The translations under genes and the position numbers were made by a program. Of a DNA stretch of 64,000 nucleotides, positions 4,548 through 47,136 are shown piece by piece; the first letter of the stretch is position 1, and each line of letters begins with the position of its first letter. The stretch is from assembly GCA_964350935.1 (NCBI GenBank), contig CAYGLL010000005.1:1544-65543 (forward strand). The letters run 5' to 3'. The stretch is from an uncultured Candidatus Saccharibacteria bacterium (lineage in GTDB: Bacteria > Patescibacteriota > Minisyncoccia > Phycocordibacterales > CAYGLL01). Below the pieces are notes generated by a model. That model was not told where the DNA came from. It searched no databases and saw only the letters and a program-made list of their open reading frames with translations.

Positions 4548-5324
4548 CTAGAGCTTGGTCAAAATCTCACCGCCTTTTTTGGTAATGAGAATCGTGTGTT
4601 CAAAATGTGCTGCGAGTGATCCGTCTTTGGTTTCATACGTAAACCCATCACTCCCCAGTTTAATCTCCGAACCACCCAGTGTAAGCATGGGCTCGATCGC
4701 GATCACCATACCTGGCGTGAGTTCTGGTCCCTCACCCTCAGTTCCAAAATTGGGAACATACGGATCTTCGTGGACAGCGTACCCGACACCATGTCCAGCA
4801 AGTTCCCGAATGATGCTGAACTTCCCTTCTGCGCGAACAAACCCTTCGATTGCCGCGCCAACATCTCCCACCGTTTTGCCTGGTCGAATCGCTTTAATGC
4901 CAACGTAGAGAGCTTCCTCGGTAACCCGCATCAATTTTTTTGCTTCTTTGGAAATGTTTCCGACACCCACCGTTATAGCCGAGTCGGTATAGAGGCCGCG
5001 ATGAACAAGGCCGGTGTCGAGCGAAACAACGTCACCCTCTTTTAGAACTTTGTTGCTCTCGTGCGGAACCCCGTGCACCACCTCATTATTTATTGAGAGA
5101 CACAGCGCGGCAGGAAAACCACGTTTTGCGCCGCGAGGTTTGTAATCTAAAAAAGCAGGCGTATCACCCCCCTTTGCAATAAGCTCAAGCGTTAATTCTT
5201 CAAGTTCCGCCCCCGTTACGCCGGGCGCCACTTTCTTTTTAAGCACAGATAAAACAGCCGCGAGGTGCTTTCCGCCCTCACGAAGTATCTCAATATCTTT
5301 GGCTGTTTTAATGGTAATTGCCAT
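4548..5324 (-). CDS. map: Methionine aminopeptidase, type I
   Basis: 258 aa. Pita-bread fold signature with metal-ligand context (CLSINNEVVHGVP, DVVSLDTG, AGHGVGYAVHE, IAIEPML, FEHTILIT) and the length are typical of MetAP-I. Confidence 0.9.
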   Translation of the reverse strand: MAITIKTAKDIEILREGGKHLAAVLSVLKKKVAPGVTGAELEELTLELIAKGGDTPAFLDYKPRGAKRGFPAALCLSINNEVVHGVPHESNKVLKEGDVVSLDTGLVHRGLYTDSAITVGVGNISKEAKKLMRVTEEALYVGIKAIRPGKTVGDVGAAIEGFVRAEGKFSIIRELAGHGVGYAVHEDPYVPNFGTEGEGPELTPGMVIAIEPMLTLGGSEIKLGSDGFTYETKDGSLAAHFEHTILITKKGGEILTKL

Positions 5325-5980
5325 TACCCTCGAGTCTCTACTATCGGTGCAACTTTTGCAAGAATACTGTCATGAACTTCTTCGATAGAGTGTTCACCGT
5401 TTACCTCCACAAAGTGAACATCGCTCTGACCGCGGAAATAATCAATAGCCGGGCGGGTATTTTTTTCAAACCAAGAAAATCGTCGCATAATCTCAGCTTC
5501 ATCATCATCAGACCGGCCACGGCTCTTAAGCCGATCTTTCGCCCATTGTGGCGTTACATTAAGCACAATAATAACCAACTTTTTAAATCCATAGAACTTA
5601 AGCGCACCGTGAACAATCGGGCTTTCGTGTGCTCGGCGAGACACACCGTCGAGAACGAGATGTTCTTTTCCGGTATAGCGGGAAATGAGGAGGTGGGACC
5701 ACAAAGAAATCGGAATAAACTCCGGCAATAAACCTCCGTGATCAATAACTTCTTTTACTACATCGCGAGTGTACCCGGCATTATCGGCAATAAATTCGCG
5801 GATGCGTGCGCCAGTTTCAATATAAAAGACTTCTCGCGAAGGCTTAATCTTTTTTAAGTAGTCGATCAGGAGTTTTGCCTGAGTGCCTTTGCCGGCACCG
5901 GAAATTCCGTAAAAAATAAACGCATGTTGATTATTTTCAAGCATGCGATTGGGTAAGGCGGTTATGGGACGCGGCCGCAA
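5324..5980 (-). CDS. adk: Adenylate kinase-family nucleoside monophosphate kinase
   Basis: P-loop FYGISGAGKGTQAKLL matches GxPGxGKGTQ. VLDGVSRR matches the NMP-binding VLDGFPR motif. The LID-region Arg/Asp run (RLKSRGRSDDDEAEIMRRF) is also present. The true start may be the internal Met at 5944. Confidence 0.8.
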   Translation of the reverse strand: MRPRPITALPNRMLENNQHAFIFYGISGAGKGTQAKLLIDYLKKIKPSREVFYIETGARIREFIADNAGYTRDVVKEVIDHGGLLPEFIPISLWSHLLISRYTGKEHLVLDGVSRRAHESPIVHGALKFYGFKKLVIIVLNVTPQWAKDRLKSRGRSDDDEAEIMRRFSWFEKNTRPAIDYFRGQSDVHFVEVNGEHSIEEVHDSILAKVAPIVETRG

Positions 5981-6074: not shown

Positions 6075-6180
6075 GCGCGCGACCTAAATCTCTTGAGCGA
6101 CTTATTCCCTTCGAGCGAAGCGCGGCAGGGATTAGGAGTGCCTGTGGCGCGAAGCGATTAGAGATTGGAAGCACTCTTGT
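6075..6180. repeat. Intergenic repeat family 1, copy 1 (between argS and adk)
   Basis: See copy 2. Contains three GCGAAGCG motifs and the complementary segments AATCTCT/AGAGATT. Confidence 0.7.
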
Positions 6181-6210
6181 AGCGAAGCGCACCACTAACT
6201 TTTAAAGCGA

Positions 6211-6301
6211 AAACTTCTCATTTTAAAATATTGCGCTGGCCGACGGGCCAATCATAGAAGAAATCTCGCAAGATTTCTTCGTGTTTTAAAATGAGAAGTT
6301 T
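6211..6301 (-). terminator. Nested inverted repeat downstream of argS: 18-bp outer stem enclosing a second hairpin
   Basis: AAACTTCTCATTTTAAAA (6211-6228) pairs perfectly with TTTTAAAATGAGAAGTTT (6284-6301). The enclosed hairpin is GAAGAAATCT-CGCA-AGATTTCTTC (6257-6280). It starts 9 nt after the argS stop codon. Confidence 0.4.
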
Positions 6302-6309
6302 GAGCGGCT

Positions 6310-8025
6310 TTACATTTTCCCGGGAACGGAAATGCCGAGCAACGAAAGGCCGTTTCTCATCACAACAACAAATGCCTCGGTGAGTGCGACCTTAAAGGGC
6401 GCTGTTGCGTCCGTCTTGTCTACAATCTTATTCTTTGCATAGTAACTATTGAATTCCCCTGCAAGAGAAATAAGGTAGGTTGCAATATATTGGGGCGAAT
6501 AGTCAGTCTGCGCACGCGTTACCACTTCCGGAAAACGGGCAACGAGTTTGGCAAGTGCCGGAGCCTCGGGTGGTGGGTTTTCAAACGATCCTTTGATTTT
6601 TTCTTTTACCGCGTTTCGAATCACCGATTCAGCGCGCACAATAGAATATTGAAGATACGGCCCTGAATCACCTTCAAATGAGAGCGCGGCCTTTTCATCA
6701 AAAATAATATCTTTACCGATCGTTTGTTTGAGAATCGTGTACTTGATCGCACCGACGGCAACGCGCGTTGCAAGTTCCGGGCGCTCAGTCGAACTGATCT
6801 CGGCGCGTTCTTTCATTTTTTCAATGACTTTTTCAGTAAGTGACGCTATAAGTGACTCCCCTGAAACAATCTTCCCGGTTCGACTCGACATTTTTCCGCT
6901 TGAAAGCTTCATCATGCCATGCGGAATATTTTTATTTTTTCCTTTGAGTATTGGCAAAACCTCATCGATCGCCTTCAAAAGAACCTTGAAATATTCCGCC
7001 TGCTCCTGTGCGGTGATGATAACCGAATGGTCGTAGGGATACCGCTCGTACTTGAGTTTGGCGAGTCCCAGTTCTTTTCCGTCATAGGTCGGAAAACCTT
7101 CGGAGTTAATAAACACACGCGTGTGGAGGCCAAACTTCTCACCCCGAAAAATAATGGCGCCTTCGCTTTTTTCAAAAATACCCTTGGGAAGAAACTCGTT
7201 AATAATCGCAACTCCCACAGGCGCTGATTCGCTCTCAAAAAAATAATGGTCGAAAGTTGTTCCCAGTTTTTTGTACATGACCTCAAAACTCTCGAGGCTC
7301 CAGGTACGGCCGAGTTCATATAAGTGATTCAACTCCTTATCGCTTTTTGCAAAAAGTTTTCGATTTACCTCAATAACGTCTTCTTTAATAGCGTCCGTTT
7401 CTGCGTAGCCCGTCGCGCCTAATGCGTACGCCTTTCCCAGAAACGCAATCTTCTCGTTCAGAGGAGCGTGGCTGACGGGGAGTTCTTCTTTAAGTCGCTC
7501 CATTCCCCACACTGCCTGAGCAACGTTCAAACCCATGTCACCCTGATAACACGCGCGCTTAACTTCAGCCCCGGAAAATTCAGCCAAACGCGAGAGTGCC
7601 TCGCCTATCGTGTTCGACATGAGGTGACCGATATGAAATTCCTTAAACGGATTTGGATCAGTGTATTCATAGATAAACTTCTTTCCCGCATTCAGATTAT
7701 TACGCCCATACTGAGAAGGATTCTTAAGCACCAACTCCAACGCCTCGCACAAACGTGCTTCAGCAAGGTAGATATTGATAAACCCCGGACCGGCAACCTC
7801 AATCTTTCCAATTTCCGGCATATTAACTTCGCGAAGTTTGTCCGCAATTCGCTTTCCTAGGTCAGCAGGATTTAGTTTGTATTCTTTTGCATGCACAAAA
7901 GCGATGTTCGTCGTGTAATCACCGTGTCCGATATCTTCCGGTGGCTCAACACTAAAAGGACCGACTTCGATCGAGAGTGACCGAAGGGCTTCTTCGAGCG
8001 CTGTTCTTATTTTTTCTCTCAGCAT
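6310..8025 (-). CDS. argS: Arginyl-tRNA synthetase
   Basis: 571 aa. N-terminal Arg-tRNA-synthetase add-on domain (IGHGDYTTNIAF), class I HIGH motif (FHIGHLMSN), KMSKS-like MMKLSSGKMSSRTGK, and a C-terminal DALR-type anticodon-binding domain (YIATYLISLAGEFNSYYAKNKIV). Confidence 0.9.
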   Translation of the reverse strand: MLREKIRTALEEALRSLSIEVGPFSVEPPEDIGHGDYTTNIAFVHAKEYKLNPADLGKRIADKLREVNMPEIGKIEVAGPGFINIYLAEARLCEALELVLKNPSQYGRNNLNAGKKFIYEYTDPNPFKEFHIGHLMSNTIGEALSRLAEFSGAEVKRACYQGDMGLNVAQAVWGMERLKEELPVSHAPLNEKIAFLGKAYALGATGYAETDAIKEDVIEVNRKLFAKSDKELNHLYELGRTWSLESFEVMYKKLGTTFDHYFFESESAPVGVAIINEFLPKGIFEKSEGAIIFRGEKFGLHTRVFINSEGFPTYDGKELGLAKLKYERYPYDHSVIITAQEQAEYFKVLLKAIDEVLPILKGKNKNIPHGMMKLSSGKMSSRTGKIVSGESLIASLTEKVIEKMKERAEISSTERPELATRVAVGAIKYTILKQTIGKDIIFDEKAALSFEGDSGPYLQYSIVRAESVIRNAVKEKIKGSFENPPPEAPALAKLVARFPEVVTRAQTDYSPQYIATYLISLAGEFNSYYAKNKIVDKTDATAPFKVALTEAFVVVMRNGLSLLGISVPGKM

Positions 8026-9269: not shown

Positions 9270-10275
9270 GGATCACCTCCATGAGAGCTTTGGCCAGTTT
9301 CACGGGATGATGCCGGACGATATCCGACTGCTGAACAAAATCGCCCGTCACAATCTTTTTCGTTACCTGCTGAAGCTCGACAACATCAACCTCGACCGGA
9401 TGGGCATTCTCGGCCGCATAGAGGGCCAGTAGCCGCTCCTCAATCCGAGCGGTGTTGCACAGCACAGCATCGAACTGATCGCGACCGATGTATGAGAGAA
9501 GCACGCGACTAAAATGCGAGGCTTTGAAGCCGAATGTCTCATTTGCCTTCGTGACAATGTTGGTGACATTGACAAGCTTGGCCTGTGTCTCCTGCATCGC
9601 CTCTTTGAAACCCTCCACCAGTGTGTTTGCACCAACAGAGCCATAGGTATCCCCTGGCGCGCAGATGATAACGTCGGCCATAGTGATTGCTTGGCGCATA
9701 TCACGCTGAATGTAAGCCTTCCGATCGAGAAAAATCCTCTTAATCGTGCGCTTATCGGTGTGTGGACGAAGATCGATTTTTTCCTCGCCTACAAGAATTT
9801 CCCCGTCGCTCAATTCAGCACACAAGTGTGCCTCATCGGTCGTCGTGTAGAGAATCCTTCCAACAACCCCAAATGCTTGTGCGAGATGATCAAGTCCGGC
9901 CTGATCATCGCCGCCACACTCGTCGCGAGCGGCAAGCGCCATAAGATTGCCGAGACTTTTACCCTGAAGACCGTTCGACTTGAACCGGTGAGCCAGCAGT
10001 TTTCGCAGGAAACCGCCTTCACGCGAACGCGCGATGATGTGCCGGCGAGAATCTCCCGGCGGTAATACTCCGTCAACGAGACGCAACTCACCTGAATGTC
10101 CACCGTTATCGAACGGCGTGCACGCAGAAGTGATCTCGAGAGCATAATCCTTTAGCCGCTCGAGCACTGCAGCCGCACCCGACCCACCCCCAATTACGAG
10201 GACTTTTTTCATTTTCGTCATATTTTCAAAGATTCCTTTCTTTCCACAATTGTTTGCCCCAGTCTCACGTACCAC
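9259..10275 (-). CDS. YvcK/CofD-family protein (gluconeogenesis factor / UPF0052-like)
   Basis: KVLVIGGGSGAAAVLERL (Rossmann-like GGGxG) plus FDNGGHSGELR resembles the YvcK/CofD DDGGSSG signature. 338 aa. Confidence 0.65.
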   Translation of the reverse strand: MVRETGANNCGKKGIFENMTKMKKVLVIGGGSGAAAVLERLKDYALEITSACTPFDNGGHSGELRLVDGVLPPGDSRRHIIARSREGGFLRKLLAHRFKSNGLQGKSLGNLMALAARDECGGDDQAGLDHLAQAFGVVGRILYTTTDEAHLCAELSDGEILVGEEKIDLRPHTDKRTIKRIFLDRKAYIQRDMRQAITMADVIICAPGDTYGSVGANTLVEGFKEAMQETQAKLVNVTNIVTKANETFGFKASHFSRVLLSYIGRDQFDAVLCNTARIEERLLALYAAENAHPVEVDVVELQQVTKKIVTGDFVQQSDIVRHHPVKLAKALMEVIHGD

Positions 10276-10662
10276 TTATAGAACTATCTACCCTTAGAAC
10301 CATTACGCTCTAAAAAGTGGTGGAGACCGACCGGCCCCCACCTTACATAAAATCACCCCTCTTTACAAGGGGTGATTTATATTTTTATTAGCGACGTAGA
10401 GCGAGCGACATTGTTTGATAAATCAAACAAGAAGTGCCCTCGTGGTATGAAATGGAGACTTCTTAGTTTCCATTTCCGAGCCGAGGTTGAGGCACGACAG
10501 CCGGCAGCGCCGAAAAACCTTGAGCGTTTTGTACTCAAAATGCGAAAGGTGTACTGCTCCTGTAAGGAGTTAACAAAGGTGGAATACCAAAGGGCATGTC
10601 CGCGCGAATGAACAAGTCTTCAAGATCCAATACTACCTCGGGGGCCCTACCCCAAGGAACCT

Positions 10663-14183: not shown

Positions 14184-15020
14184 GTGACCAAATTCGACGA
14201 AATCTATCAAAATCTGATCCGGCAAATTATGTCTGAGGGTATTCCTGAAGTAAACCAACGTACGCGCCATGAGACAAAAGCTATTATGGGCGCTCACTTT
14301 ACGATGGACATTGAAAAAGACGGCTTCCCGCTTTTGACGCTACGAAAAACTCGTTCCACCTTTTTCGTTGCTGAACAGATCTGGTTCATCACCGGCGCAC
14401 GAAAGCCGGAAATATTTCTGCGGCAATTTACGAAAGTCTGGGACGACTTTACCAACCCGGGCGATGTCGTCACAGTCGCCTATGGCTACCGCTGGCGTAA
14501 ACACTTCGGTCGCGACCAATTAGGCAAACTGATCGACCTTCTCAAAAAAGATCCTTCCTCACGGCATGGTGTCGTGGTTACCTGGGACCCCTCATCAGAT
14601 GGCTTGGGCGGCACTGCCAAGAAAAACGTTCCCTGCCCCTTTACCTTTACCGTTGGAATTGTAGGTGGGCGACTACACTTACATAACATTATCCGATCAA
14701 ACGACGTCATGCTTGGAACTCCGGCCGACGTTGCCGGCTTTGTACTCCTTCAAATGATCCTCGCACAAGAACTCGGTGTTCGCCCTGGCATTTACTCTCA
14801 TTCGATTTCAAACGCTCACATCTACGATATTCACTATGATGCAGCACAGGAACTACTGCGACGCACCAACGATCACAAAAAAATTGAATTGACGCTTCCA
14901 AAAAACACATTCAAACGCGCCGAGAAACAAGATGCAAAGCTCGTTCAAGAAATTGTTGCTGAACTCGAGCGCGACTATCGCCCCCTAGAACCTTTAAAGG
15001 GCCTAAAGATCGTACTGTAA
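14184..15020 (+). CDS. thyA: Thymidylate synthase (ThyA type)
   Basis: 278 aa. Active-site region VPCPFTFTVGIVGGRLHLHNIIRSNDVMLGTPADVAGFVLLQMILAQELGV...SNAHIYDIH matches ThyA (PCH.., Q..RS.D..LG.PFNIASY, D.HIY). Confidence 0.9.
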   Translation: MTKFDEIYQNLIRQIMSEGIPEVNQRTRHETKAIMGAHFTMDIEKDGFPLLTLRKTRSTFFVAEQIWFITGARKPEIFLRQFTKVWDDFTNPGDVVTVAYGYRWRKHFGRDQLGKLIDLLKKDPSSRHGVVVTWDPSSDGLGGTAKKNVPCPFTFTVGIVGGRLHLHNIIRSNDVMLGTPADVAGFVLLQMILAQELGVRPGIYSHSISNAHIYDIHYDAAQELLRRTNDHKKIELTLPKNTFKRAEKQDAKLVQEIVAELERDYRPLEPLKGLKIVL

Positions 15021-23273: not shown

Positions 23274-23400
23274 GAATGATTTTCTTAACGAACGAAGTGA
23301 GTCTATAGAAAATCTTTACCCCGTGGAATACAAATCCTTCAGATTTGAATGCGTAAAACACATTATTCCACGGGGTAAGAAAATACAGTCGCTTCGCTCC
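23274..23400 (-). ncRNA. Conserved 5' leader element of secE (hairpin CCCCGUGGAAUA...UAUUCCACGGGG), paralog of the rplK leader
   Basis: 12-bp stem and similar flanking sequence (CTTA..GAGCGAAG..) to the rplK leader. A terminator of the upstream gene sits at 23420-23440. Confidence 0.45.
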
Positions 23401-23489
23401 GAATTTTCTTACTAAAAAAGGCCCGACGGCCTTTATAGATGTGTATACTACTCTCTTTAAGGGCTTTGTCAAACACGCGCTCCCACGAT

Positions 23490-30148: not shown

Positions 30149-30668
30149 GAAGTATTTCCTTCAACTTCTGCGTGCCGCGTGTGAGTCGTACTGATACATT
30201 ATTCTCGCTCTCCCCTACCAGATCTGCAATCTCGTTAATCGCATGACCGGAAATGAAACGCAATTCCATGATTTTTCGGTAAGGTTCGGGGAGGTGTTTG
30301 ATCCCTTCGACGGCAATACGGGCTTCAGCGGAGAGAACCATACGAGTGTGACTTTCTGCTTCGGCGGGGTCAAAACCTTCTTCGACGAGCGAGTCCAGTG
30401 ATTCTGATTTTCGTTTTCGATATTCATCGATGATGAGGTTATTGGCAATCTTATAAATAAACGACTTTAAGTGCGTTACTTTTTTACCCTCGGAAAGATA
30501 CTGCCAGGCTCGCGTAAAGGTATCTTGCACCAGGTCAAGAGCTTTTTCGCGGTTTGAGATTTTGTAGAGGCAATGACGAAATAGAGGGTCAGCAAGCTGA
30601 TCATAGACAGCAAGGAATTCATTATTAATATCGTGTGTTCCTTTCATAGAGTATGACGGGATACCCAT
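30132..30668 (-). CDS. ECF-type RNA polymerase sigma-70 family factor
   Basis: 178 aa. Region 2 (LVQDTFTRAWQYL...FIYKIANNLIIDEYRKRK) and region 4 HTH (YRKIMELRFISGHAINEIADLVGESENNVSVRLTRGTQKLKEIL). Confidence 0.8.
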   Translation of the reverse strand: MGIPSYSMKGTHDINNEFLAVYDQLADPLFRHCLYKISNREKALDLVQDTFTRAWQYLSEGKKVTHLKSFIYKIANNLIIDEYRKRKSESLDSLVEEGFDPAEAESHTRMVLSAEARIAVEGIKHLPEPYRKIMELRFISGHAINEIADLVGESENNVSVRLTRGTQKLKEILHAHEH

Positions 30669-31534
30669 TATCTCCTTACAACGGCTTCCAGAGCTTCGAC
30701 CACATTTTCAAAAAGGGATGCAACGGTCATGGGACCGACACCTCCGGGAACGGGAGAAATAGCCGAAACAAGGCCCGAAACAGCCTCAAAATCAACATCT
30801 CCGGTGAGTTTTTGAGTGCCGATTTCATCCTCAAGTTTTTTAGCCGAGACATTAATACCAACATCGATGACAACCTGGCGCGGACTCACATAATCTGCCG
30901 TAATAAGGTTTGGTACGCCTGCAGCAACAACAATGATGTCGGCGGTATGAGTGACTTCAGCCACATCCTTCGTTTTGCTGTGGCAAATAGTAACCGTTGC
31001 GTCATGGTTTAACAAAAGAAGCGCGGTGGGTTTTCCCACCAAGACCGAACGTCCGATGACAACAATTTTTTTACCCGCGACAGAAATATCGTAGTATGAG
31101 AGAAGCGAAAGAACACCGCGAGCAGTTGCCGGAACAAAACCCCTGCGGTTGTCCCAGAGCGCTTTGGTGTTTGTTGACGTTAATCCATCAACATCTTTTG
31201 TCGGAGTAATGGCTTCAATAATATTCCATCGATTGAGATGCTTCGGGATTGGCATTTGAACAATAATGCCGTGCACGGAAATGTCCGCATTCAATTTTTT
31301 AATTTCTGCGAGCACATCAATTTCACCGACATCCTCATCAAGGACTATGTGATTGACTGAGGCTCCGATTTTTTCAGCAAATTTCTTTTTTTGGGTAATG
31401 TAAGCAGTTGATTCCGGAAGCGAGCCAATCTGTATCACCGCGAGCGTCGGAACGAGAGAGCTGCGCCCAACCTTTTCTTTGAGTTTCTGCGCAATCATAT
31501 CGCGAACTATCGTGCCCTTAAGAATTCTTGCCAT
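30668..31534 (-). CDS. folD: Bifunctional methylene-THF dehydrogenase / methenyl-THF cyclohydrolase
   Basis: 288 aa. ILKGTIVRDMIAQKL..., the NAD(P)-binding VVIGRSVLVGKPTALLLLNHDATVTICHSKT, and GGVGPMTVA are all FolD hallmarks. Confidence 0.9.
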   Translation of the reverse strand: MARILKGTIVRDMIAQKLKEKVGRSSLVPTLAVIQIGSLPESTAYITQKKKFAEKIGASVNHIVLDEDVGEIDVLAEIKKLNADISVHGIIVQMPIPKHLNRWNIIEAITPTKDVDGLTSTNTKALWDNRRGFVPATARGVLSLLSYYDISVAGKKIVVIGRSVLVGKPTALLLLNHDATVTICHSKTKDVAEVTHTADIIVVAAGVPNLITADYVSPRQVVIDVGINVSAKKLEDEIGTQKLTGDVDFEAVSGLVSAISPVPGGVGPMTVASLFENVVEALEAVVRR

Positions 31535-31658: not shown

Positions 31659-31883
31659 ATGTTCACTCGTCTTCCGAATGATATGTGGGTGCTCGTTGTT
31701 ATACTTCTTTTTGTTGGCCTTGTGGCAGCCTCAGTGCGACACGATCGTTTTCAGCGTTCCATGGGAATCGCTGCGCTCGGCATTGCTCTCATCTTAGGAT
31801 CGTGCCTCCTCTTCAGTCCCAAAGCGAAAACTGCATCGGCCGAAATCTCTCCGCAAAAAGGAATCGCCACCGTTTCGAAGTGA
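31659..31883 (+). CDS. Small membrane protein (74 aa) candidate
   Basis: Two hydrophobic helices (WVLVVILLFVGLVAASV; IAALGIALILGSCLLF). A clean terminator sits directly downstream. Confidence 0.4.
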   Translation: MFTRLPNDMWVLVVILLFVGLVAASVRHDRFQRSMGIAALGIALILGSCLLFSPKAKTASAEISPQKGIATVSK

Positions 31884-31890
31884 CTTTCTT

Positions 31891-31925
31891 CCCCGCTCCG
31901 GCTATACCGGAGCGGGGATTTTTCA
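31891..31925 (+). terminator. Rho-independent terminator
   Basis: CCCCGCTCCGG-CTATA-CCGGAGCGGGG followed by ATTTTTC. Confidence 0.6.
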
Positions 31926-32000
31926 ACAAGATTTTTGTAGTTAAAAATATTTCCTTTAATCTCCAGAGCGAGAATCTCGATTTTAAAAACATTGTGAAGC

Positions 32001-32106
32001 TCGCGACCTAAATCTCTTGAGCGACTTAAATTCCTTCGAGCGAAGCGAGGTAGGGATTAGGAGTGCCTGTGGTGCGAAGCGATTAGAGATTGGAAGTACT
32101 CTTGTG
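32001..32106. repeat. Intergenic repeat family 1, copy 2 (~105 bp, ~92% identical to 6075-6180)
   Basis: The shared core runs CGCGACCTAAATCTCTTGAGCGACTTA and continues with one indel and ~4 mismatches over ~105 nt as (C/A)GG(C/T)AGGGATTAGGAGTGCCTGTGG(C/T)GCGAAGCGATTAGAGATTGGAAG(C/T)ACTCTTGT. Both copies are intergenic. Confidence 0.7.
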
Positions 32107-32225
32107 GTAACTGGTGCGAGCATAGTAATTTTCAGCGACCGAGCGTTGAGCGAGGAAGTACTGAGCTCAGCAGAGCGAATGTGCAGGATTTTATCCATGT
32201 TTTTAAAAAAGAGTTTGAGCGCCCC

Positions 32226-33464
32226 CTACTCGTAGCGAAGCGCTTCAATCGGGCTTTTCTTTGAAGCTTTGCGTGCTGGGTAAATTCCAAAGACAAGACC
32301 GACTCCGGTTGAGACCACGAGACCGATAACAATTGCATCCCAGGGAAAAACAAATGCCCACGAGAGACCTGCGAAATTACTAATAGCGAGAGCCGCCGCG
32401 TAGGAAACCAGAAGTCCGAGGGTAATACCGATCACGCCGCCGATACCCGTGAGTAAAACTGCTTCGATCAAAAACTGAGTCAGAATATTTTTCGTTGTAG
32501 CGCCAAGTGCCTTGCGTAAACCAATCTCACGCGTACGCTCAGTCACCGAGACGAGCATGATATTCATAATGCCGATGCCTGCGACAACAAGTGAGATAGC
32601 GGCAACTGCAACGAGAAAGAGCGTAAGCGCGGTCGTAATTGCACCCAGACGAAGTGCGAGGTCAGCCTGTGTCTGAACAAAGAAATCATCCTTGTCCGGA
32701 TCGGTAATATCATGACTGTCCCGCAGTACGGTTTTTATCTGCTCTACCGTATCGTTGATTGCTTCCTCCGACACCGCTTTTATAAAAAATCGATGGAAGT
32801 ATTTGATACCAAAAACATATTGCTGGGCAGACGTATATGGAACAATCGCCATTTCGTCGAAATTAAAAAATGCACTGGTGCCACCAGTCGGCAAAACGCC
32901 GATTACACGAAAACTGCGATTCTTTATCCGGATCTTCTTGCCCAAGGCGCTCTCATCGCCGAATAATTCTTCCTTAACCTTTCCGCCAATAACAGCAACA
33001 TCAGCTTTACCCAACACATCGTCCTCGGTAAAGAAAACACCTTCAGCGGGACGCAAATCGAAAACGTCAGCCATGAGTTCAGATCCGCCAAAAATAGTGA
33101 GGCGATATGTTTCGCTCCCATAACTTCCTGTTTCCCCACCAAAAACGATCGGCATCACGCTTTCAGCATCCGGCACATTAGATTTTTTGGTAAGAAGCTC
33201 AAGATCATGTTCTTTGAGTGAGTCGCTGAAAATTTGTGCTGAATCCGACGGACCCTTAGGCTCACGTCCAGGAATAACCGCAATGGTTTTGGTGCCAATC
33301 CCCTGAATTTGTCCGAGAATAAAATTCTGCGCGCCCTTACCGGTCGACATGACAATAATGATCGAGGTGATGCCGATGATAATGCCAAGGATCGTTAAAA
33401 AAGAACGGAACTTGTGAGTAGTGATTCCGGTGAATGCTGTTTTGAATGAGTATTGAATACGCAT
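32226..33464 (-). CDS. ABC transporter permease, MacB/FtsX family
   Basis: 412 aa. N-terminal TM (FRSFLTILGIIIGITSIIIVMS), a large extracytoplasmic domain, and a C-terminal FtsX 3-TM bundle (LVSVTERTREIGLRKALGA..., ARKASKKSPIEALRYE). Confidence 0.85.
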   Translation of the reverse strand: MRIQYSFKTAFTGITTHKFRSFLTILGIIIGITSIIIVMSTGKGAQNFILGQIQGIGTKTIAVIPGREPKGPSDSAQIFSDSLKEHDLELLTKKSNVPDAESVMPIVFGGETGSYGSETYRLTIFGGSELMADVFDLRPAEGVFFTEDDVLGKADVAVIGGKVKEELFGDESALGKKIRIKNRSFRVIGVLPTGGTSAFFNFDEMAIVPYTSAQQYVFGIKYFHRFFIKAVSEEAINDTVEQIKTVLRDSHDITDPDKDDFFVQTQADLALRLGAITTALTLFLVAVAAISLVVAGIGIMNIMLVSVTERTREIGLRKALGATTKNILTQFLIEAVLLTGIGGVIGITLGLLVSYAAALAISNFAGLSWAFVFPWDAIVIGLVVSTGVGLVFGIYPARKASKKSPIEALRYE

Positions 33465-35082: not shown

Positions 35083-36144
35083 CTATTTAATTATTCTCAC
35101 CACCCCTTTATCTGCATCAACTTCCACTGAGTCGCCTGTTTTTAAAAATCTCGTCGCATATTTTGTTCCCATGATGCAGGGTTTTTTGAGTTCGCGGGAA
35201 ACAATCGCGGCGTGACACGTAAGCCCCCCTTCATCAGTTACAATTGCAGAACATTTTTTAATTAAATGCATGAGATGTGGATTCGAATTAATTGAAACAA
35301 GAATATCCCCCTCATTAAATTCAACTCCCGCACCGTCAATACTTAAAACTACGCGCGCAACCCCCTTTGCTTTTCCCTTGTACGCAATCTGGCCTTTAAG
35401 TTCTTGCGGCATTTCAACACTCACCTGCTCCAACTTTGAAACAATCGGCGATGTATCAGAAATCCAGTTAAGCGAAGACTTCTTATTTACAACCTGAAAA
35501 ATGAACTTTTTGTTATTTTTTCTTTCTTCCAACCGTGGGGCAATACCGCTTATATCTTTTCTGAGCAACTCATCAATGGTCATAAGCTGGATAGCCTTTT
35601 CCGGATCTGCAATTCCCTGTGATTTTAAAAAGGTGGCCCCCAAAGGAACAAGAATCTGCTGCATAATCGCCGGATAGAATGAGGTCGCACGCAAATGCTC
35701 ACAGGTGGCGAGCAATTCTTTGTCATCTTTCTGTGCAGCTGTTAAACCTAAGTGTATGAAGTGCGGCAACATCGTCGAATGAAACGCGACCTTAAAAAGA
35801 AAACTGACCGCATCGGGAATATTCTCAAACGCAGATACACCTAAAGCAACTTTGTCTTCAGCGATCGTATTGAGTCGATACGCTTCGGCTAAAAGTTCTC
35901 TGCATTTAAGAGGATTTTCAACTGCCAATTTCTTTACCGAATCCTTCAAATACTGAAGTTGCTCTTCAACTCGATAATGTCGTAATACTCCCTCGTGCTC
36001 TTCTACGAAAAGCACGTCAGAAACATCCATACCGATTAGTTCGCGAACGTAGTCAGCGTACCAGCAATACCACAGAGAACATCCGAACAAATTGAATGGA
36101 CGTGTCAGATAGTGAACCCATTTTTTTGAAGTATCATATAGCAT
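35083..36144 (-). CDS. PEP-utilising-enzyme mobile (phosphohistidine swivel) domain protein lacking an ATP-binding domain (paralog 1 of 4)
   Basis: 353 aa. C-terminal ILVSINSNPHLMHLIKKCSAIVTDEGGLTCHAAIVSRELKKPCIMGTKYATRFLKTGDSVEVDADKGVVRIIK matches the PEP-utilisers mobile domain (GGxT(S/C)HAAI(V/I)(A/S)RE..P.VVG) with the catalytic His conserved. The N-terminal ~260 aa are an unrecognised helical domain. Confidence 0.7.
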   Translation of the reverse strand: MLYDTSKKWVHYLTRPFNLFGCSLWYCWYADYVRELIGMDVSDVLFVEEHEGVLRHYRVEEQLQYLKDSVKKLAVENPLKCRELLAEAYRLNTIAEDKVALGVSAFENIPDAVSFLFKVAFHSTMLPHFIHLGLTAAQKDDKELLATCEHLRATSFYPAIMQQILVPLGATFLKSQGIADPEKAIQLMTIDELLRKDISGIAPRLEERKNNKKFIFQVVNKKSSLNWISDTSPIVSKLEQVSVEMPQELKGQIAYKGKAKGVARVVLSIDGAGVEFNEGDILVSINSNPHLMHLIKKCSAIVTDEGGLTCHAAIVSRELKKPCIMGTKYATRFLKTGDSVEVDADKGVVRIIK

Positions 36145-36146
36145 AT

Positions 36147-37580
36147 TTATTTAATTATCCTCACCACCCCTTTATCCGCATCAACTTCCACCATATCGCC
36201 GTCCTTCAGGACCTTCGTGGCGATCTTGGTTCCTACAATACAAGGCTTCTTAAGTTCACGTGCAACAATCGCGGCATGTGAAGTAATTCCACCCTCATCG
36301 GTCACAAAAGCGGAAGCGATCTTCATTGCCGGCGTATAATCAGGCATTGTCGTCCGTGCGACAAGGATATTTCCTTGCTTAACCTTTCCGAGGTCTTCTT
36401 TAGAAAACACGAGTGCAATCTGGCCTGTAACCTTTCCTTTGAACGCAGGAGTACCTTTAATATTCGTATCAGTCTCCACCTTCGTCACGATCTCAACCAC
36501 TTCAGTGACGAAGTCTTCCTCGGTGATCGTCTCCGTCTCACCTTGCCGGTAATAGAATACGAACAAGCCCGTAGTTCTCTTTTTGAGAGCATCGATATCC
36601 GGCAAAACTCCCGATTCAAGATAAGCTATTACTTCGCGATTCATGAGATAAGCCATATCTTTTGCGTCCACCGATGTTCCGCTTTCCGACATAGAGCGAG
36701 CCATTTTTTGAAACAAACCGCGCACGTGGACCTGAACCTTTTTAAAAATATCCACTCGTGCTGTACGCAAGTAGATGTATTTATTAATGAACTTCGCCCC
36801 AGCTTTTAAATAAGGATCTGTTATCTCATCTCTTGTTTTTTCAAAATGCTTTTTTCCTTCCTCGATATGGGAAAGGATACTTTCTTTTTCGATCCTCGCT
36901 TGATCTGCGGTCAACGACCCAACTTCTTTCTCAAAATATGTTTCGTCCCAAAGTGTCTCTACAAAAGAATACTCTCCACCCCATGAATAGTTCTGAGCGA
37001 GATCACTAATTCGTGCCTTGCGCTCGGAAAGAGGCGCGACGGCAGTATCACATACAGCGATCCTGATCTTTTGGTAATCAATGAGCTCCGTGGGAGATGT
37101 TATGGCTGCATAGATATCTTCGTATGTCTTTGGGTATGTTCCTTGAAGTTTCGCGAGATACACCGGCGTAAAATAATCTTCAAGTACCCACGGCATCCAA
37201 GCGTATGGGGCAATTTTCGGCATGAGTGTCAGCCACATCTTATACGCAATAAGTATTTCTTTTGAATCCGTATTCGTTCTTTTTATCTTCTCGATCGTTT
37301 CCTCACGAAATTTTTCAACCGCCTCATATTCATCGATATGTTTCTGCATCGACTCAGCGTCTTTGAAGACTTCTTTCAGATATTCAAATATCCAGTCCCG
37401 ATGAGTCCTGTCGATGTAATAACCTCGATTACCATTTCCAAGCGGAACAGTAACCACTGTCGGCTTTTTATCGTTCGACAATAGACTGACAAGCGCGGCG
37501 TATTCATCACGTTGGGTCGTTGACGGTCGCGAAGCCCAAAATACTACCTTCTTAAAAAAATCAGGAATTTTTTTACTCAT
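36147..37580 (-). CDS. PEP-utilising-enzyme mobile domain protein lacking an ATP-binding domain (paralog 2 of 4)
   Basis: 477 aa. C-terminal ILVARTTMPDYTPAMKIASAFVTDEGGITSHAAIVARELKKPCIVGTKIATKVLKDGDMVEVDADKGVVRIIK. The N-terminal ~370 aa are unrecognised. The last ~45 nt of the coding sequence are almost identical to paralogs 1 and 3. Confidence 0.7.
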   Translation of the reverse strand: MSKKIPDFFKKVVFWASRPSTTQRDEYAALVSLLSNDKKPTVVTVPLGNGNRGYYIDRTHRDWIFEYLKEVFKDAESMQKHIDEYEAVEKFREETIEKIKRTNTDSKEILIAYKMWLTLMPKIAPYAWMPWVLEDYFTPVYLAKLQGTYPKTYEDIYAAITSPTELIDYQKIRIAVCDTAVAPLSERKARISDLAQNYSWGGEYSFVETLWDETYFEKEVGSLTADQARIEKESILSHIEEGKKHFEKTRDEITDPYLKAGAKFINKYIYLRTARVDIFKKVQVHVRGLFQKMARSMSESGTSVDAKDMAYLMNREVIAYLESGVLPDIDALKKRTTGLFVFYYRQGETETITEEDFVTEVVEIVTKVETDTNIKGTPAFKGKVTGQIALVFSKEDLGKVKQGNILVARTTMPDYTPAMKIASAFVTDEGGITSHAAIVARELKKPCIVGTKIATKVLKDGDMVEVDADKGVVRIIK

Positions 37581-39007
37581 TTGATTATCCTCACCACCCC
37601 CTTATCTGCGTCCACTTCCACCATGTCACCATCTTTTAAAATTTGAGTTGCAAATTTAGTTCCGATAACACAAGGCTTATTGATCTCTCGAGAAACGATC
37701 GCCGCATGACAAAGCATGCCTCCAATGTCGGTTATGATCGCGCCTGCCTTATGCATTAAAACCACAAAGTCGGGCGTGGTCATAGTTGAAACCAAAACAT
37801 CCCCAGTTTCCATTTTTGCAAAATCATGTGTATTCATAATAACTTTTGCTGGACCGGTATAGTGCCCTTTATTACCAACCTGACCTCGTATTTCCTTATC
37901 TGAAATATTCGCCTCTGGAATCATTAATTTTTTTAAGCGTTCAACATCTTCGGGATCCTCACTAAAGAAAACTTTCTCTCCTTTTCCCGCAAATAAAATC
38001 GTGTCCATCGCTTGTCTACACTTTGCATTATTCTTTAATGTTTCTGCGTTTACACGCCCTTTCAACGCTTCAACCACTTCAACGTCAAGTTGTAGTAGCA
38101 ATTCCTGATAAGTAAGTCCGAACTTATTTCCGATAGCTTTGAGGTATGGCTGAGCTTTTTCTGACAACATAAAGAAATACTCAGCCCCTGCCTGTCGAAT
38201 ATATCCACAGTAGCTCATACATTTTGCATGAAAGGCAAGACTTTCTGAAACAGCGGGTAACGCCTTCCTCTTCGGGGTGTGCTCATCCGTAGCATGGACA
38301 ATCTGTTCATACAACCTTTCAACAGTGAGAGGTTCGCCGACAAGATTAGCAATTTCAATCCAGGCAAACCGCTGTGCATGATCTTTAAGTTTTTGGTAAA
38401 GCTCCTCATCTTTTTTTATTTCTTCAAGCGAGCGGCCACCGACCTCTTTTTTGAGCTCTACCACTTCTCTGTGCTGTTGATTTAGCGGCGTATCAAACTT
38501 TGGAATAGTTTCGGATAACAACTCTGCCGGAAATGACTCAGCCACTGCTGCATCTGCTAATTTTTCCTGCGCATGTTCTGAAAACTGCTCCGCTCCCAAC
38601 ATCCAAAGAAACGTGATCTTTTTTCCAAGAATAAGATATTCTGAAAAAGCCTCTGCGGTTAGTTTTTTATCTTTGAACGTTTTTCCAAAAACAACTGCCT
38701 CTCTAAAATAATCGTCAGAGACTGTGACCATATTCTTAAAGAAAGCTTCATCTTTTACTTCTATCTTCTGCCTGATTTGTTTTCCTATATTCTCGATCTC
38801 TGACTTTTTAATAAAAAAATTTCCTTGCGTGAGTACTGCCGTTCCGGATTCTTCTGTTTCTATTCCAAGCCTATCTGCCACTTCCCTGCTGAAGCAATCT
38901 GCCCAAAAACATGCGGAAAATAAATTTTGCTTCCAAAGACCGAAGAAATGATACGCCTTCGGATCAAAGTTTTTTAATACGGCCGATTTAAATTCAAAAG
39001 TATTCAC
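37577..39007 (-). CDS. PEP-utilising-enzyme mobile domain protein lacking an ATP-binding domain (paralog 3 of 4)
   Basis: 476 aa. C-terminal VLVSTMTTPDFVVLMHKAGAIITDIGGMLCHAAIVSREINKPCVIGTKFATQILKDGDMVEVDADKGVVRIIK. Overlaps paralog 2's start by 4 nt. Confidence 0.7.
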   Translation of the reverse strand: MNTFEFKSAVLKNFDPKAYHFFGLWKQNLFSACFWADCFSREVADRLGIETEESGTAVLTQGNFFIKKSEIENIGKQIRQKIEVKDEAFFKNMVTVSDDYFREAVVFGKTFKDKKLTAEAFSEYLILGKKITFLWMLGAEQFSEHAQEKLADAAVAESFPAELLSETIPKFDTPLNQQHREVVELKKEVGGRSLEEIKKDEELYQKLKDHAQRFAWIEIANLVGEPLTVERLYEQIVHATDEHTPKRKALPAVSESLAFHAKCMSYCGYIRQAGAEYFFMLSEKAQPYLKAIGNKFGLTYQELLLQLDVEVVEALKGRVNAETLKNNAKCRQAMDTILFAGKGEKVFFSEDPEDVERLKKLMIPEANISDKEIRGQVGNKGHYTGPAKVIMNTHDFAKMETGDVLVSTMTTPDFVVLMHKAGAIITDIGGMLCHAAIVSREINKPCVIGTKFATQILKDGDMVEVDADKGVVRIIK

Positions 39008-39012
39008 ACTAG

Positions 39013-41031
39013 TTAGGAAATAATTTTTACAATTCCCTTCTCTGCATCCACCTCGACCATATCACCGTCTTTGAGAGCTTGTGTTGCGCTTTTAGTTCCT
39101 ACGATACAGGGTATTCTGAGCTCCCTACTTACAATTGCAGCGTGACACACCACACCACCCTCATCGGTTACAATTGCGCTGCATTTTTTCATTGCAGGGA
39201 CATAATCAGGTGAGGTTGCATACGTAACCATGACATCACCGTCCTGAATTTCATCCAGATTTAATTTTGTGAGTACTAATTTTACTTTACCCGTCACAAC
39301 TCCCGGAGAAGCGGGCATACCTTTTAATTCGGGTGTTGATTCCACGCTGCTTTTCTCTAAAACTGCGTGGGCGTTTTTTAACTCGCCTGATAACTCACTA
39401 GCGGAAATGAGCTTCGATTTTCCACCAAGGGTTGCTAACACACAACCGTTCTTTCTGTCTTTGATCTGCTTAATTTCTTTTTCTGACAAAGAATCAATTC
39501 GGTAGACTTCATCGGGCGTGAAGAGATGTGCAACCGACTGATATTGTGGGTAGTTACCATCGATAAAATCAGTGAAAATACGGTCTCCTTCATCAGAATA
39601 TTCTTGAGTTTGCTCTCTCACTTTCAAGGCTTTCTTGCGCAATTCTTCAGGCACCTCACTTCTGTCCGGAATCACAAACACGTAAGCCATTGGCGACCAC
39701 CACCGCATCCAATTAGTGTAATATTCTTTCAACTCACCAACTGTCTGAATACGCTTTTTCTTTTGAACGTACGGTAGTAACTTCTCCCAATATTGATAAA
39801 ATTGGGCAGTAACTGCATCTAAAATTTTCGGATCTTTCTTAATTGCGGAAGCGATACGATCGAAGACCATTTCTATCTCCTTAAGATCGTAATACACTTC
39901 CAATACGCCAAGCTTGTTGAAGGAAAAAAGCATGTTCCGAATGTTAGTTTCTGGAACGTGTTCGTTAAAGAAATCTCTATTCGCCTCATTCCAAACATGG
40001 GCGTAAAACAAAGAGTGCTCACGACTCATATACTTACTGAGTACTATTTCTGGGTAAGAGTTCTTTTTTGAAAGCGTGGTTATCGGGCGGCTCTGAACGA
40101 TATAAAATTTGCCGGCTTCAAAAGCCCACTCGATATCACATGGAAAACCGTAATGGTTTTCGATTTTTAAAATAATCTCAGAAAGTTCGAGGATCTGCTC
40201 TGTGGTTAAAACCTGCGATGACGCTCGCGGTTCAGGAATGTCACGCCATTCATTGTTTCCATGTTCTGCGGAACTTTTTTCAGAACGATAGAGAGCGCGT
40301 TCCTGTGTCGAAACATTTACGTCTAAAATATTCCGTGGCTCTTTCTCCACCACATAGCTATCGGGTGTTATTTGCCCCGAAACAATCGCTTCGCCTAAAC
40401 CAAAACCCGCCTCAATAATGAGCTGGTTGTAATCTTCAGTCACCGGATGAACGGAAAACGCGATACCGCTCACTTCTGACTCCACCATATTCTGAACAAC
40501 CACCGCAACCGAAATCTTTGTCGCATGTAATCCTTTCTCAAATCGATAGAAAATGGCGCGTGGGGTGAAAAGCGATGACCAACAGCGTTTAACTTTTTCC
40601 AAAAGATCCACCTTCGTCGTGTTGAGATAACTTTCCAACTGACCCGCCCAGGCATGATCCATACCATCTTCAGCGGTCGCAGAAGAACGCACCGCAACAA
40701 AAGTTGTACCTAATTTTGCAAACTGTGACTCGATATCTTTTTTAATATCTTCCGGCATCTCCCGACTTAAAATCAAACCACGAATATCTTCTGAAGCGCG
40801 ATCAACCGTGTGAATCTCTTTATGATTCACCCTGCCAAGAATCGCATCGATCTCCTGAACCAGATCGGTTTCTTCGATGAATCGCTCAAAAGAATTCGAG
40901 AGTACAACAAATCCCGGCGGAACAGGAATTCCTGCCTGAGTCATCTCACCTAAAGACGCGCCTTTACCCCCAGCAAGAGAAGCATCTCCTTTATTCAAAG
41001 CATTGAAATTGCGCGTGAGTTCAGGCGACAT
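39013..41031 (-). CDS. PEP synthase / rifampin-phosphotransferase-like enzyme: N-terminal pyruvate-phosphate-dikinase-type ATP-binding domain plus C-terminal phosphohistidine swivel domain (no PEP/pyruvate TIM-barrel domain)
   Basis: 672 aa. The N-terminus (LAGGKGASLGEMTQAGIPVPPGFVV...FVAVRSSATAEDGMDHAWAGQLESYLN...VAVVVQNMVESEVSGIAFSVHPVT...CDIEWAFEAGKFYIVQSRPITTL) matches the PPDK_N/PpsA ATP-grasp domain. The C-terminus (VMVTYATSPDYVPAMKKCSAIVTDEGGVVCHAAIVSRELRIPCIVGTKSATQALKDGDMVEVDAEKGIVKIIS) is the mobile His domain. Domain order is ATP-grasp, middle domain, swivel, as in rifampin phosphotransferase. Confidence 0.8.
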   Translation of the reverse strand: MSPELTRNFNALNKGDASLAGGKGASLGEMTQAGIPVPPGFVVLSNSFERFIEETDLVQEIDAILGRVNHKEIHTVDRASEDIRGLILSREMPEDIKKDIESQFAKLGTTFVAVRSSATAEDGMDHAWAGQLESYLNTTKVDLLEKVKRCWSSLFTPRAIFYRFEKGLHATKISVAVVVQNMVESEVSGIAFSVHPVTEDYNQLIIEAGFGLGEAIVSGQITPDSYVVEKEPRNILDVNVSTQERALYRSEKSSAEHGNNEWRDIPEPRASSQVLTTEQILELSEIILKIENHYGFPCDIEWAFEAGKFYIVQSRPITTLSKKNSYPEIVLSKYMSREHSLFYAHVWNEANRDFFNEHVPETNIRNMLFSFNKLGVLEVYYDLKEIEMVFDRIASAIKKDPKILDAVTAQFYQYWEKLLPYVQKKKRIQTVGELKEYYTNWMRWWSPMAYVFVIPDRSEVPEELRKKALKVREQTQEYSDEGDRIFTDFIDGNYPQYQSVAHLFTPDEVYRIDSLSEKEIKQIKDRKNGCVLATLGGKSKLISASELSGELKNAHAVLEKSSVESTPELKGMPASPGVVTGKVKLVLTKLNLDEIQDGDVMVTYATSPDYVPAMKKCSAIVTDEGGVVCHAAIVSRELRIPCIVGTKSATQALKDGDMVEVDAEKGIVKIIS

Positions 41032-44996: not shown

Positions 44997-45014
44997 ACGA
45001 ACTGAAGTACGTTT

Positions 45015-46994: not shown

Positions 46995-47136
46995 AATTTC
47001 TAATAATTTATCCCCCGCTTTGGTTCCCTCAAATGGAGTTTGTTAATAATTAATATAAACTGCACTTTCGTTTACAACCCGTCGCGCGCCACAGTACGTG
47101 ACGCGCAAGCCGGTTATAAGCGAATAGCTTAGAAAA

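Follow-up and report, generated by a model that had tools for sequence, protein, structure and literature searches.

What is the short sequence that recurs, nearly unchanged, in two intergenic spacers of the window, by which we mean the whole 64-kb stretch of DNA analyzed? The first-pass annotation described a duplicated ~105-nt element and offered three options for it: a small RNA gene family, a REP/MITE-like mobile repeat, or a shared regulatory site. The duplication is real. Over the 104 columns of their alignment, copy A (6078-6180) and copy B (32002-32105), which lie 26 kb apart, are 93.3% identical, and one indel, of 1 nt, separates them (blastn E 1.6e-36); their likeness ends abruptly at both sides. 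By blastn, the 105-nt composite has only these two copies within the window (repeat families D5 and D6). The window also holds other repeated sequences: four neighboring paralogous genes with PEP-utilizing mobile domains at 35083-41031 (repeat family D1, 64-73% identity) and a paralogous block of surface-protein-like genes at 43821-48309 (SpaA-like, LTD, camelysin-like) with internal DNA repeats D2, D4, and D9.

Copy A lies between argS (6310-8025, minus strand) and adk (5324-5980, minus strand), as had been described. For copy B, Pfam bears out the reported placement between a MacB/FtsX permease gene (32226-33464, minus strand) and folD (30668-31534, minus strand), except that a 74-aa membrane-like ORF (31659-31883, plus strand) with a strong terminator (31890-31918) intervenes on the folD side. 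That ORF, the sole plus-strand gene of its stretch, has no Pfam match and encodes two predicted hydrophobic helices ahead of the terminator, which is a 12-bp GC-rich one. Both copies are on the plus strand, antisense to argS, adk, the permease gene, and folD. The genes beside the two copies are unrelated and copy B sits at a site with convergent 3' ends on either side, which speaks against a shared regulatory site.

The complementary arms AAATCTCT/AGAGATT reported for the element are found in both copies. Three GCGAAGCG motifs had been assigned to it as well; two are present inside each shared segment, and the third lies just beyond that segment in copy A and has no counterpart in copy B. The motif occurs 13 times in the window against 2.9 expected. 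The 1-nt indel leaves no consistent reading frame across A and B, and the small ORFs that overlap the copies have no Pfam match; coding potential is thereby ruled out, in agreement with the earlier statement that no ORF of note is present. Other candidates were rejected: a DGR template/variable repeat pair, since the differences show no specificity for adenine, the two copies lie in intergenic DNA, and an RT is lacking; and a replication origin, terminus, or dif site, since the GC skew is monotonic across the window.

The 105 nt do not themselves constitute the repeating unit, as had been supposed, and resolve into a nested dimer of a unit of 53-54 nt (GCGACCTAAATCTCTTGAGCGAAGCGATTAGAGATTGGAAGTACTCCTGTGGTG in the genome loci). 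The unit opens with GCGACC, continues as a hairpin with a TTGAGCGAAGCGATT loop, and closes with GGAAGTACTCYTGTGGT. Each window copy is one ~53-nt unit nested in the apical loop of a second unit, after ..CTCTTGA. The parts are as follows (L numbers are our handles for loci, and CM denotes the covariance model):

6079-6096, plus strand: copy A, 5' part of the outer unit (GCGACCTAAATCTCTTGA), unit positions 1-18 with the 5' GCGAC, the 5' stem arm, and the loop start; 22/22 identity to the canonical unit, by comparison with canonical units in L004-L017.

6097-6148, plus strand: copy A, inner unit of 52 nt, diverged (GCGACTTATTCCC..GAGCGAAGCG..AGGGATTAGGAGTGCCTGTGGC), which interrupts the outer unit's loop at TTGA^GCGA, as read from the sequence; its homologue is inner unit B.

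6149-6180, plus strand: copy A, 3' part of the outer unit (GCGAAGCGATTAGAGATTGGAAGCACTCTTGT); 28/28 positions at 96% identity to the canonical unit; CM match 6138-6186, 26.9 bits, E 1.2e-5.

6182-6189, plus strand: orphan GCGAAGCG beside copy A, followed by CACCAC, the reverse complement of the tail GTGGTG.

32003-32020, plus strand: copy B, 5' part of the outer unit; 22/22 identity to the canonical unit.

32021-32073, plus strand: copy B, the complete inner unit (53 nt), whose stem AAATTCC / GGGATT is compensated in its own right; match to CM R1 at 32021-32078, 36.7 bits, E 1.4e-8, full model length.

32074-32109, plus strand: copy B, 3' part of the outer unit with the complete tail ..GGAAGTACTCTTGTGGTA; 35 nt at 97% identity to the canonical unit; CM match 32079-32111.

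A 1-nt deletion weakens the stem of inner unit A, whose CM score is therefore only 6.9 bits, and the tail of outer unit A has had its final GGT(G) lost or replaced. The orphan motif with its CACCAC is probably what remains of another unit. An internal 34-nt tandem periodicity, tried as a separate explanation, is accounted for by the two nested units; TRF gave only an 18-nt period, in copy B. The inner-unit 20-mer GGGATTAGGAGTGCCTGTGG has no match in the genome and metagenome collections, so this subtype is private to the window lineage; the nested composite therefore originated there and was afterwards duplicated whole.

The unit belongs to a dispersed family. An exact-pattern scan with the 20-mer GCGAAGCGATTAGAGATTGG, from the 3' part of the repeat, returned 14 genome loci, 13 of them in Patescibacteria MAGs (Paceibacteria/Paceibacterota, Yonath-, Taylor-, and Lloydbacteria, Saccharibacteria, and Parcubacteria); the fourteenth is in a planctomycete and has only 21 nt in common. 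Five loci from three MAGs carry the 54-nt unit at 100% identity, and their flanks are unrelated. A second pattern, GAGCGAAGCGA-N9-GGAAGTACT, in which the 3' arm is left free, found 88 metagenome stretches, many from groundwater; the same pattern had no match among viral contigs, and blastn against phage and plasmid collections gave nothing relevant. Because the search pattern fixed the loop and GGAAGTACT, their conservation in the metagenome set follows from it; the pattern left free the 5' GCGAC, the two stem arms, and ..CYTGTGGTG, and these are conserved or covarying. A covariance-model search recovered 128 units in 663 kb, with several contigs carrying multiple dispersed copies and a density of ~1 non-seeded copy per 29 kb even in carriers. 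Where the first-pass annotation had allowed that only these two copies might exist, the 53-nt family proves to be widespread.

The covariance-model search also returned variants with a different loop (L015:2639, L047:1115 and 2467, L040:894) and variants with a short hairpin (L054:75, L018:1707, L086:10055). All of them keep GCGAC and GAAGTRCYC.TGTGGT, so what stays constant is a stem together with the two ends, and the loop can be exchanged. A replaceable loop fits the copying of the window composite in spite of the 53-nt insert that its loop carries.

The family matches nothing that we could find on record. Rfam 15 gave no match at the gathering threshold over the units, the window spacers, and 26 related loci, and nothing relevant to the unit at E up to 10 over the window spacers and the same 26 loci; the covariance-model scan for a known family thus returned none, and the matches elsewhere in the searched loci were to tRNA, tmRNA, RNase P, and LOOT only. 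The LOOT RNA (RF03000, 85.9 bits) is at L004:1656-1775, on a Paceibacterota MAG contig that also carries the unit. A literature search, by sequence strings and by CPR combined with REP, MITE, RAYT, and structured RNA, turned up no report of the sequence or of such a CPR repeat. Small interspersed hairpin repeats are a known kind of thing; as far as we can tell, this family, its architecture, and its host range are new, the new architectural points being a single hairpin plus tail, loop-nesting, and head-to-tail arrays.

The hairpin is maintained by selection on pairing. Across 41 distinct units, 99.1% of the cells in the proposed hairpin are standard pairs, and in six of the nine stem pairs both partners have changed (41 cells). 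Compensatory arms include AAATCTCT/AGAGATT, AAATTTCT/AGAAATT, AATTTTCT/AGAAAAT, AAAGCTCT/AGAGCTT, and AAATTTAT/ATAAATT. None of 500 shuffles matched the observed pairing and covariation, and sliding the partner by 1-3 columns lowers pairing to 31-43%. The basal pairs G1.U42 and C2-G41 also keep pairing (with AU, GC, and UA variants); the helix therefore spans positions 1 to 42, and 6-7 of its pairs have compensatory changes. It consists of a covarying 7-9 bp stem, an internal purine loop, a 2-nt bulge, tandem G.A pairs, and a GCGAAGC mini-hairpin at the tip, and is followed by an 11-nt single-stranded tail, ACUCYUGUGGU. At least 90% of units begin with GCGA(C). Wobbles occur on the top strand, with G1.U42 predominant and the others numbering four GU/UG versus one AC, and the top strand is therefore the one that folds. 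Single units have folding energies no better than shuffles (z -0.1 to -1.0), as do the 105-nt copies under single-sequence folding, so the case for structure is carried by covariation and not by energy. The unit ends, GCGAC.. and ..TGTGGT, are not complementary; the unit has its inverted repeat inside and none at its termini.

Units occur in 120 blocks: 114 single units, four two-unit arrays, and two three-unit arrays, the arrays running head-to-tail with a period of 53 and no spacer (for example in L015, L030, L059, L063, and L088). Their precise presence and absence can be read from filled and empty versions of the same site, several of these comparisons setting side by side paralogous copies of other repeats, or different organisms, instead of strains of one population. 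In L099, a unit lies between ..TTTTCCATT and TGCTCCTC.., and L023 has the empty site (CCATT^TGCTCC) with flanks 100% and 98.5% identical and without target duplication. L023 has two copies (9536-9636 and 14330-14430) of the sequence flanking the L099 unit; they are inverted, lie 4.7 kb apart, and could represent the ends of a larger element. At TCGA^GATACG, a host repeat of ~190 nt is filled by the unit in L080, L018:6505, and L105 and empty in L081, L053, L064, and L018:1560. Independently, this repeat is found with and without a short-hairpin relative, at GTTGCG^AAAATC; reciprocal filled and empty states are found inside single contigs (L018) and between L080 and L081. Two further pairs are L014 versus L051 and L025 versus L009.

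The ~190-nt repeat is a multi-copy element in its own right, with 20-nt terminal inverted repeats (AGAGCCTATCCACTATCTAA / TTAGATTATGAATAGGCTCT), several copies per contig, and no entry in Rfam; its copies are at L080:1934-2215, L081:12003-12189, L018:6514-6753 and 1568-1801, L064:3938-4109, L053:1044-1230, and L105:4852-5133.

Target-site duplications, which the first-pass annotation had raised, are absent from the filled/empty pairs of the family, where we found only 3-5 nt of microhomology, in two cases. Among the eight inferred sites, the last bases are ..TGA or ..CGA in three cases and ..ATT, ..GCG, ..TGT, ..GCT, and ..CGG in the others, with no single motif. At least five of the eight are in the loop of a predicted host hairpin, and the insert measures 52 or 53 nt, one base apart between cases. 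A second module, in tRNA flanks, presents the unit before it, inside its first loop, in mid-module, or after it, depending on the genome. This non-coding module of tRNA 3' flanks (GATGTTTTG-loop-CAAAACCGCGAGGCAGGGTCGTGAAAAT-hairpin-ATTCCTGACCAC), sometimes interrupted by a unit at differing positions, is not in Rfam; copies are at L004:7338-7420, L017:6222-6300, L012:2690-2830, L008:7290-7130 (minus strand), L015:1110-1030 (minus strand), and L008:3678.

Three further members of the family can be placed in the window:

10405-10449, plus strand: short-hairpin subfamily member, GCGAC-hairpin-GAAGTGCCCTCGTGGTA, in the SHMT-CofD spacer; CM match 17.5 bits, E 0.007.

23380-23407, minus strand: partial unit upstream of nusG, only the hairpin with its GAGCGAAGCGA loop; CM match 15.6 bits, E 0.027, model positions 9-36.

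32135-32167, plus strand: possible decayed third unit in the spacer of copy B, GCGACC..TTGAGCGA..GGAAGTACTGAG; tentative, from a weak CM match (9 bits, E 2.3) and reading by eye.

The first of these has the same architecture as L054:75-119, L018:1707-1751, and L080:1985-2029, and with the other two it indicates that several window spacers have been enlarged by the family. The SHMT-CofD spacer is 387 nt long in the window versus 67 nt in the relative L001, and the argS-adk spacer is ~330 nt versus 121, 74, and 56 nt in L001-L003, the nearest relatives of the window organism (70-71% ArgS identity). By its ArgS the window belongs to Patescibacteria, and the named matches of that protein are Paceibacteria-like. 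The adk promoter and start region (TTGTGTATACT..GAGGCGTGAAAT) is common to the window and these relatives, whose argS-adk spacers hold no trace of the repeat element; the longer spacer and the element-free relatives together imply that the extra DNA was inserted in the window lineage. With regard to adk itself, the mechanical ORF starts at TTG (5980), and the P-loop region and the gene models of the relatives suggest that the real start is the ATG ~36 nt downstream (near 5944); its extended -10 promoter, TTGTGTATACT (6040-6030, minus strand), is conserved with the relatives.

The enlarged spacers contain other sequences as well. The SHMT-CofD spacer (10276-10662) holds a motif at 10506-10570 (..CCTTGAG..GTACTCAAAA..CGAAAGGTGTAC.GCTCCTGTAAGGAG) that has no Rfam family and is also present in L051, L014, L031, L044, L047, L082, and L001:535-559, the last just after rplK; in L014 the motif is itself broken by two units. 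Copy A adjoins a Y-shaped palindrome (6198-6314) with 18-nt perfect arms (6211-6228 / 6284-6301), two inner hairpins, and an outer stem that extends to the argS stop codon. Its RNA fold is very stable (z -6.3 on the minus strand, -8.5 on the plus strand), and it has no match in the other loci examined. Related arms of 20 nt, 85% complementary (GCTCAAACT..TTTTAAAA; 31973-31992 / 32197-32216), begin 5 nt past the permease stop codon and bracket copy B, which is therefore in the loop of such a palindrome. These palindromes could be lineage-specific terminators or a second repeat family.

The 83 non-redundant contexts of the unit are intergenic, unrelated, and in both orientations: convergent pairs account for 14 sites, divergent pairs are the rarest class (7/55), and of the units between co-directional genes 18 are antisense and 16 sense. 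Twenty-two of the 83 (27%) lie within 300 nt of a tRNA gene, 19 of these 22 in the tRNA 3' flank and 14 of them on the tRNA strand, with some units located after canonical tRNA terminators. The pattern suggests avoidance of promoter regions rather than a tie to a class of genes. Relative to the gene majority, units are opposite in 20 cases and the same in nine (p 0.06), a weak bias.

Could the unit be a cis-acting RNA module, that is, a protein-binding, processing, stabilizing, or terminating hairpin kept at 3' ends because it is useful there and occasionally duplicated by recombination? The top-strand wobbles with the conserved G1.U42, the tandem G.A pairs and GAA triloop, the invariance of loop and tail across classes, the crowding into tRNA 3' flanks, mostly on the tRNA strand, and the rarity of divergent sites are what such a module would lead one to expect. 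We nevertheless consider it unlikely, given the near-even split of antisense and sense units in co-directional pairs, the antisense position of both window copies, the units found beyond canonical tRNA terminators, the insertions within other repeats and one another, and the tandem arrays without spacer; tRNA flanks, moreover, make up a big share of the scarce non-coding DNA of these genomes, so that the tRNA proximity may reflect availability.

A family of independently transcribed small RNA genes acting in trans, the first of the options named at the outset, is a very improbable reading. A conserved, structured sequence in several copies per genome is in keeping with it, but similarity stops at the unit borders and the flanks are unrelated, which leaves no shared promoter or terminator; the copies are head-to-tail and nested and lie in both orientations relative to neighboring genes, Rfam has no match, and 53 nt without a terminator would be atypical of a bacterial sRNA gene. 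We give still less credence to a specialized repeat RNA, whether a type III antitoxin-like array, a small self-cleaving ribozyme or rolling-circle unit, or a CRISPR-like repeat: the exact head-to-tail arrays of two or three units with period 53 recall such systems and the unit size suits small ribozymes, but 114 of 120 blocks are single, spacers are absent, no conserved gene is adjacent and the arrangement with a type III toxin endoribonuclease is not found, no ribozyme, CRISPR, or other Rfam model matches at E up to 10, and viral contigs have no match. A double-stranded DNA site used by the cell, such as a DNA-uptake sequence, these bacteria being competence-dependent, or the site of a chromosome-organizing protein, is just as remote, for although the unit has invariant blocks (GAGCGAAGCGA, AGTACT), is dispersed in many copies, and lies near gene 3' ends, as the uptake sequences of Neisseria do, its stem covaries, so that structure and not duplex sequence is selected, its conserved G.U wobble is strand-specific, its density is low even in carriers, and precise insertion polymorphisms and nesting are unexpected for a binding site.

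Among the options first proposed, the mobile repeat is the one that the data bear out, with a multi-copy dispersed hairpin family, insertion polymorphisms, and tandem and nested copies. The known classes of such repeats fit it in part. Like REP and REPIN elements, which are mobilized by RAYT proteins (Y1 HUH transposases) in Proteobacteria, the units are short extragenic covarying hairpins with a conserved short sequence at the 5' foot, multi-copy, mostly at gene 3' ends, and free of ORFs and target duplications, the enzyme presumably acting in trans; the segment G1-U42 also agrees with the description of a REP as an imperfect palindrome of ~20-40 nt kept as a hairpin. The unit is nonetheless not a member of the REP family. 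Its 5' motif is GCGA(C) instead of GTAG, it adds an 11-nt conserved 3' tail, it forms head-to-tail or loop-nested copies in place of inverted doublets (BIME/REPIN), its hosts are Patescibacteria, and neither the 763 ORFs around the loci (regex) nor the 50 window ORFs (Pfam) yielded a RAYT gene.

The ends of IS200/IS605 elements and their ORF-less derivatives (PATE-like) share with the unit the lack of TIR and TSD and a strand-specific structure, and the right end of IS608 likewise has a sub-terminal hairpin with a short linker to the end. The unit is not a typical IS200/IS605 derivative, since it has one hairpin where those have separate left-end and right-end hairpins; the eight inferred sites revealed no defined target of 4-5 nt, there is no tnpA or tnpB nearby, and the weak strand bias runs the other way. 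MITEs such as Correia/NEMIS of Neisseria and RUP of pneumococcus resemble it in being small, ORF-less, non-autonomous, multi-copy, and dispersed, with insertion polymorphism, nesting, and spacer expansion. They have terminal inverted repeats and target duplications (often TA), however, and the unit, having neither, is not a MITE.

BOX elements of Streptococcus pneumoniae and MIRUs of Mycobacterium are, like the unit, modular or tandem intergenic repeats of ~45-60 nt with variable copies per locus; there is no correspondence in sequence or modular (A-B-C) organization, and MIRUs are co-oriented with operons and carry tiny ORFs, whereas a hairpin is what defines our units, and their orientation is mixed. 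Integron attC sites offer a structure-specific single-strand hairpin with a covarying stem, variable apex, conserved ends, and insertion without duplication, all as in the unit, which differs in having no R''/R' boxes (RYYYAAC/GTTRRRY), no cassettes between units, and no integrase nearby.

The genes around the units do not point to an enzyme. No protein family recurs near more than five of ~100 loci, an HUH..Y regex finds no HUH-Y1-like ORF among the 763 ORFs of the flanking loci, and Pfam finds no transposase, integrase, or RT domain in the 50 window ORFs. Between pairs of units there is likewise no such domain, only ordinary genes, for example for a radical SAM protein and the CCA-adding enzyme. 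We found no autonomous master copy or composite transposon, and no split unit that encloses an ORF.

We think it fairly probable, on balance, that the window copies are two nested members of a ~53-nt Patescibacteria repeat family that behaves as a non-autonomous mobile DNA element, inserting precisely without TSD or TIR, and that the composite was later copied 26 kb away. Observation contributes directly the family, a selected hairpin with constant ends, precise presence and absence, tandem and nested copies, and no linked gene. The top strand would fold as single-stranded DNA, and a structure-specific enzyme whose gene lies elsewhere in the genome would cut and join it in trans, by analogy with the HUH/Y1 transposases that act on REP elements (RAYT) or on IS200/IS605 ends. 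Insertion would favor 3'-side intergenic DNA and would often strike hairpin loops, those of other units among them. At one point in the window lineage, a unit would have landed in the loop of another at TTGA^GCGA, and the resulting 105-nt composite, its outer ends and stem still intact, would then have been copied to a second intergenic site 26 kb off.

Some points stand against mobility: the ORFs searched contained no candidate mobilizing enzyme, no autonomous copy turned up, the insert varies by one base in length, there is no clear target motif, and a lone unit is predicted to be no more stable than its shuffles. The near-invariant loop and tail across classes could equally mean a cellular function, and the weak strand bias, if real, runs counter to the one expected of IS608-type lagging-template insertion. 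A more far-reaching version, which we regard as possible but doubtful, is that the family is something peculiar to Patescibacteria: a mobile element of a new class, or a nucleic-acid module that propagates itself. In it, a 42-nt hairpin with an 11-nt tail would be placed precisely in hairpin loops, including its own, through an enzyme or RNA-mediated route non-homologous to the mobilizers of REP, IS200, and MITE elements. Were this so, the near-identity of units across classes would mean either that units often pass horizontally between these episymbionts or that they have been domesticated for a cellular role held in common.

Returning to the mobile repeat that we favor, the family points to an enzyme that recognizes a folded single strand, and the covariance model can be used to count copies per genome, to look for a co-occurring gene by phylogenetic profiling, and to provide strain markers in groundwater metagenomes. 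Annotation of these genomes calls for some caution, because units break up other conserved non-coding elements beside tRNA genes. The genomes of CPR/Patescibacteria are small (~1 Mb) and tightly packed, and they are usually called poor in repeats and mobile DNA. A selected 53-nt hairpin that is present across several of their classes, together with the spacers that it has enlarged, points to an active source of genome change in Patescibacteria.
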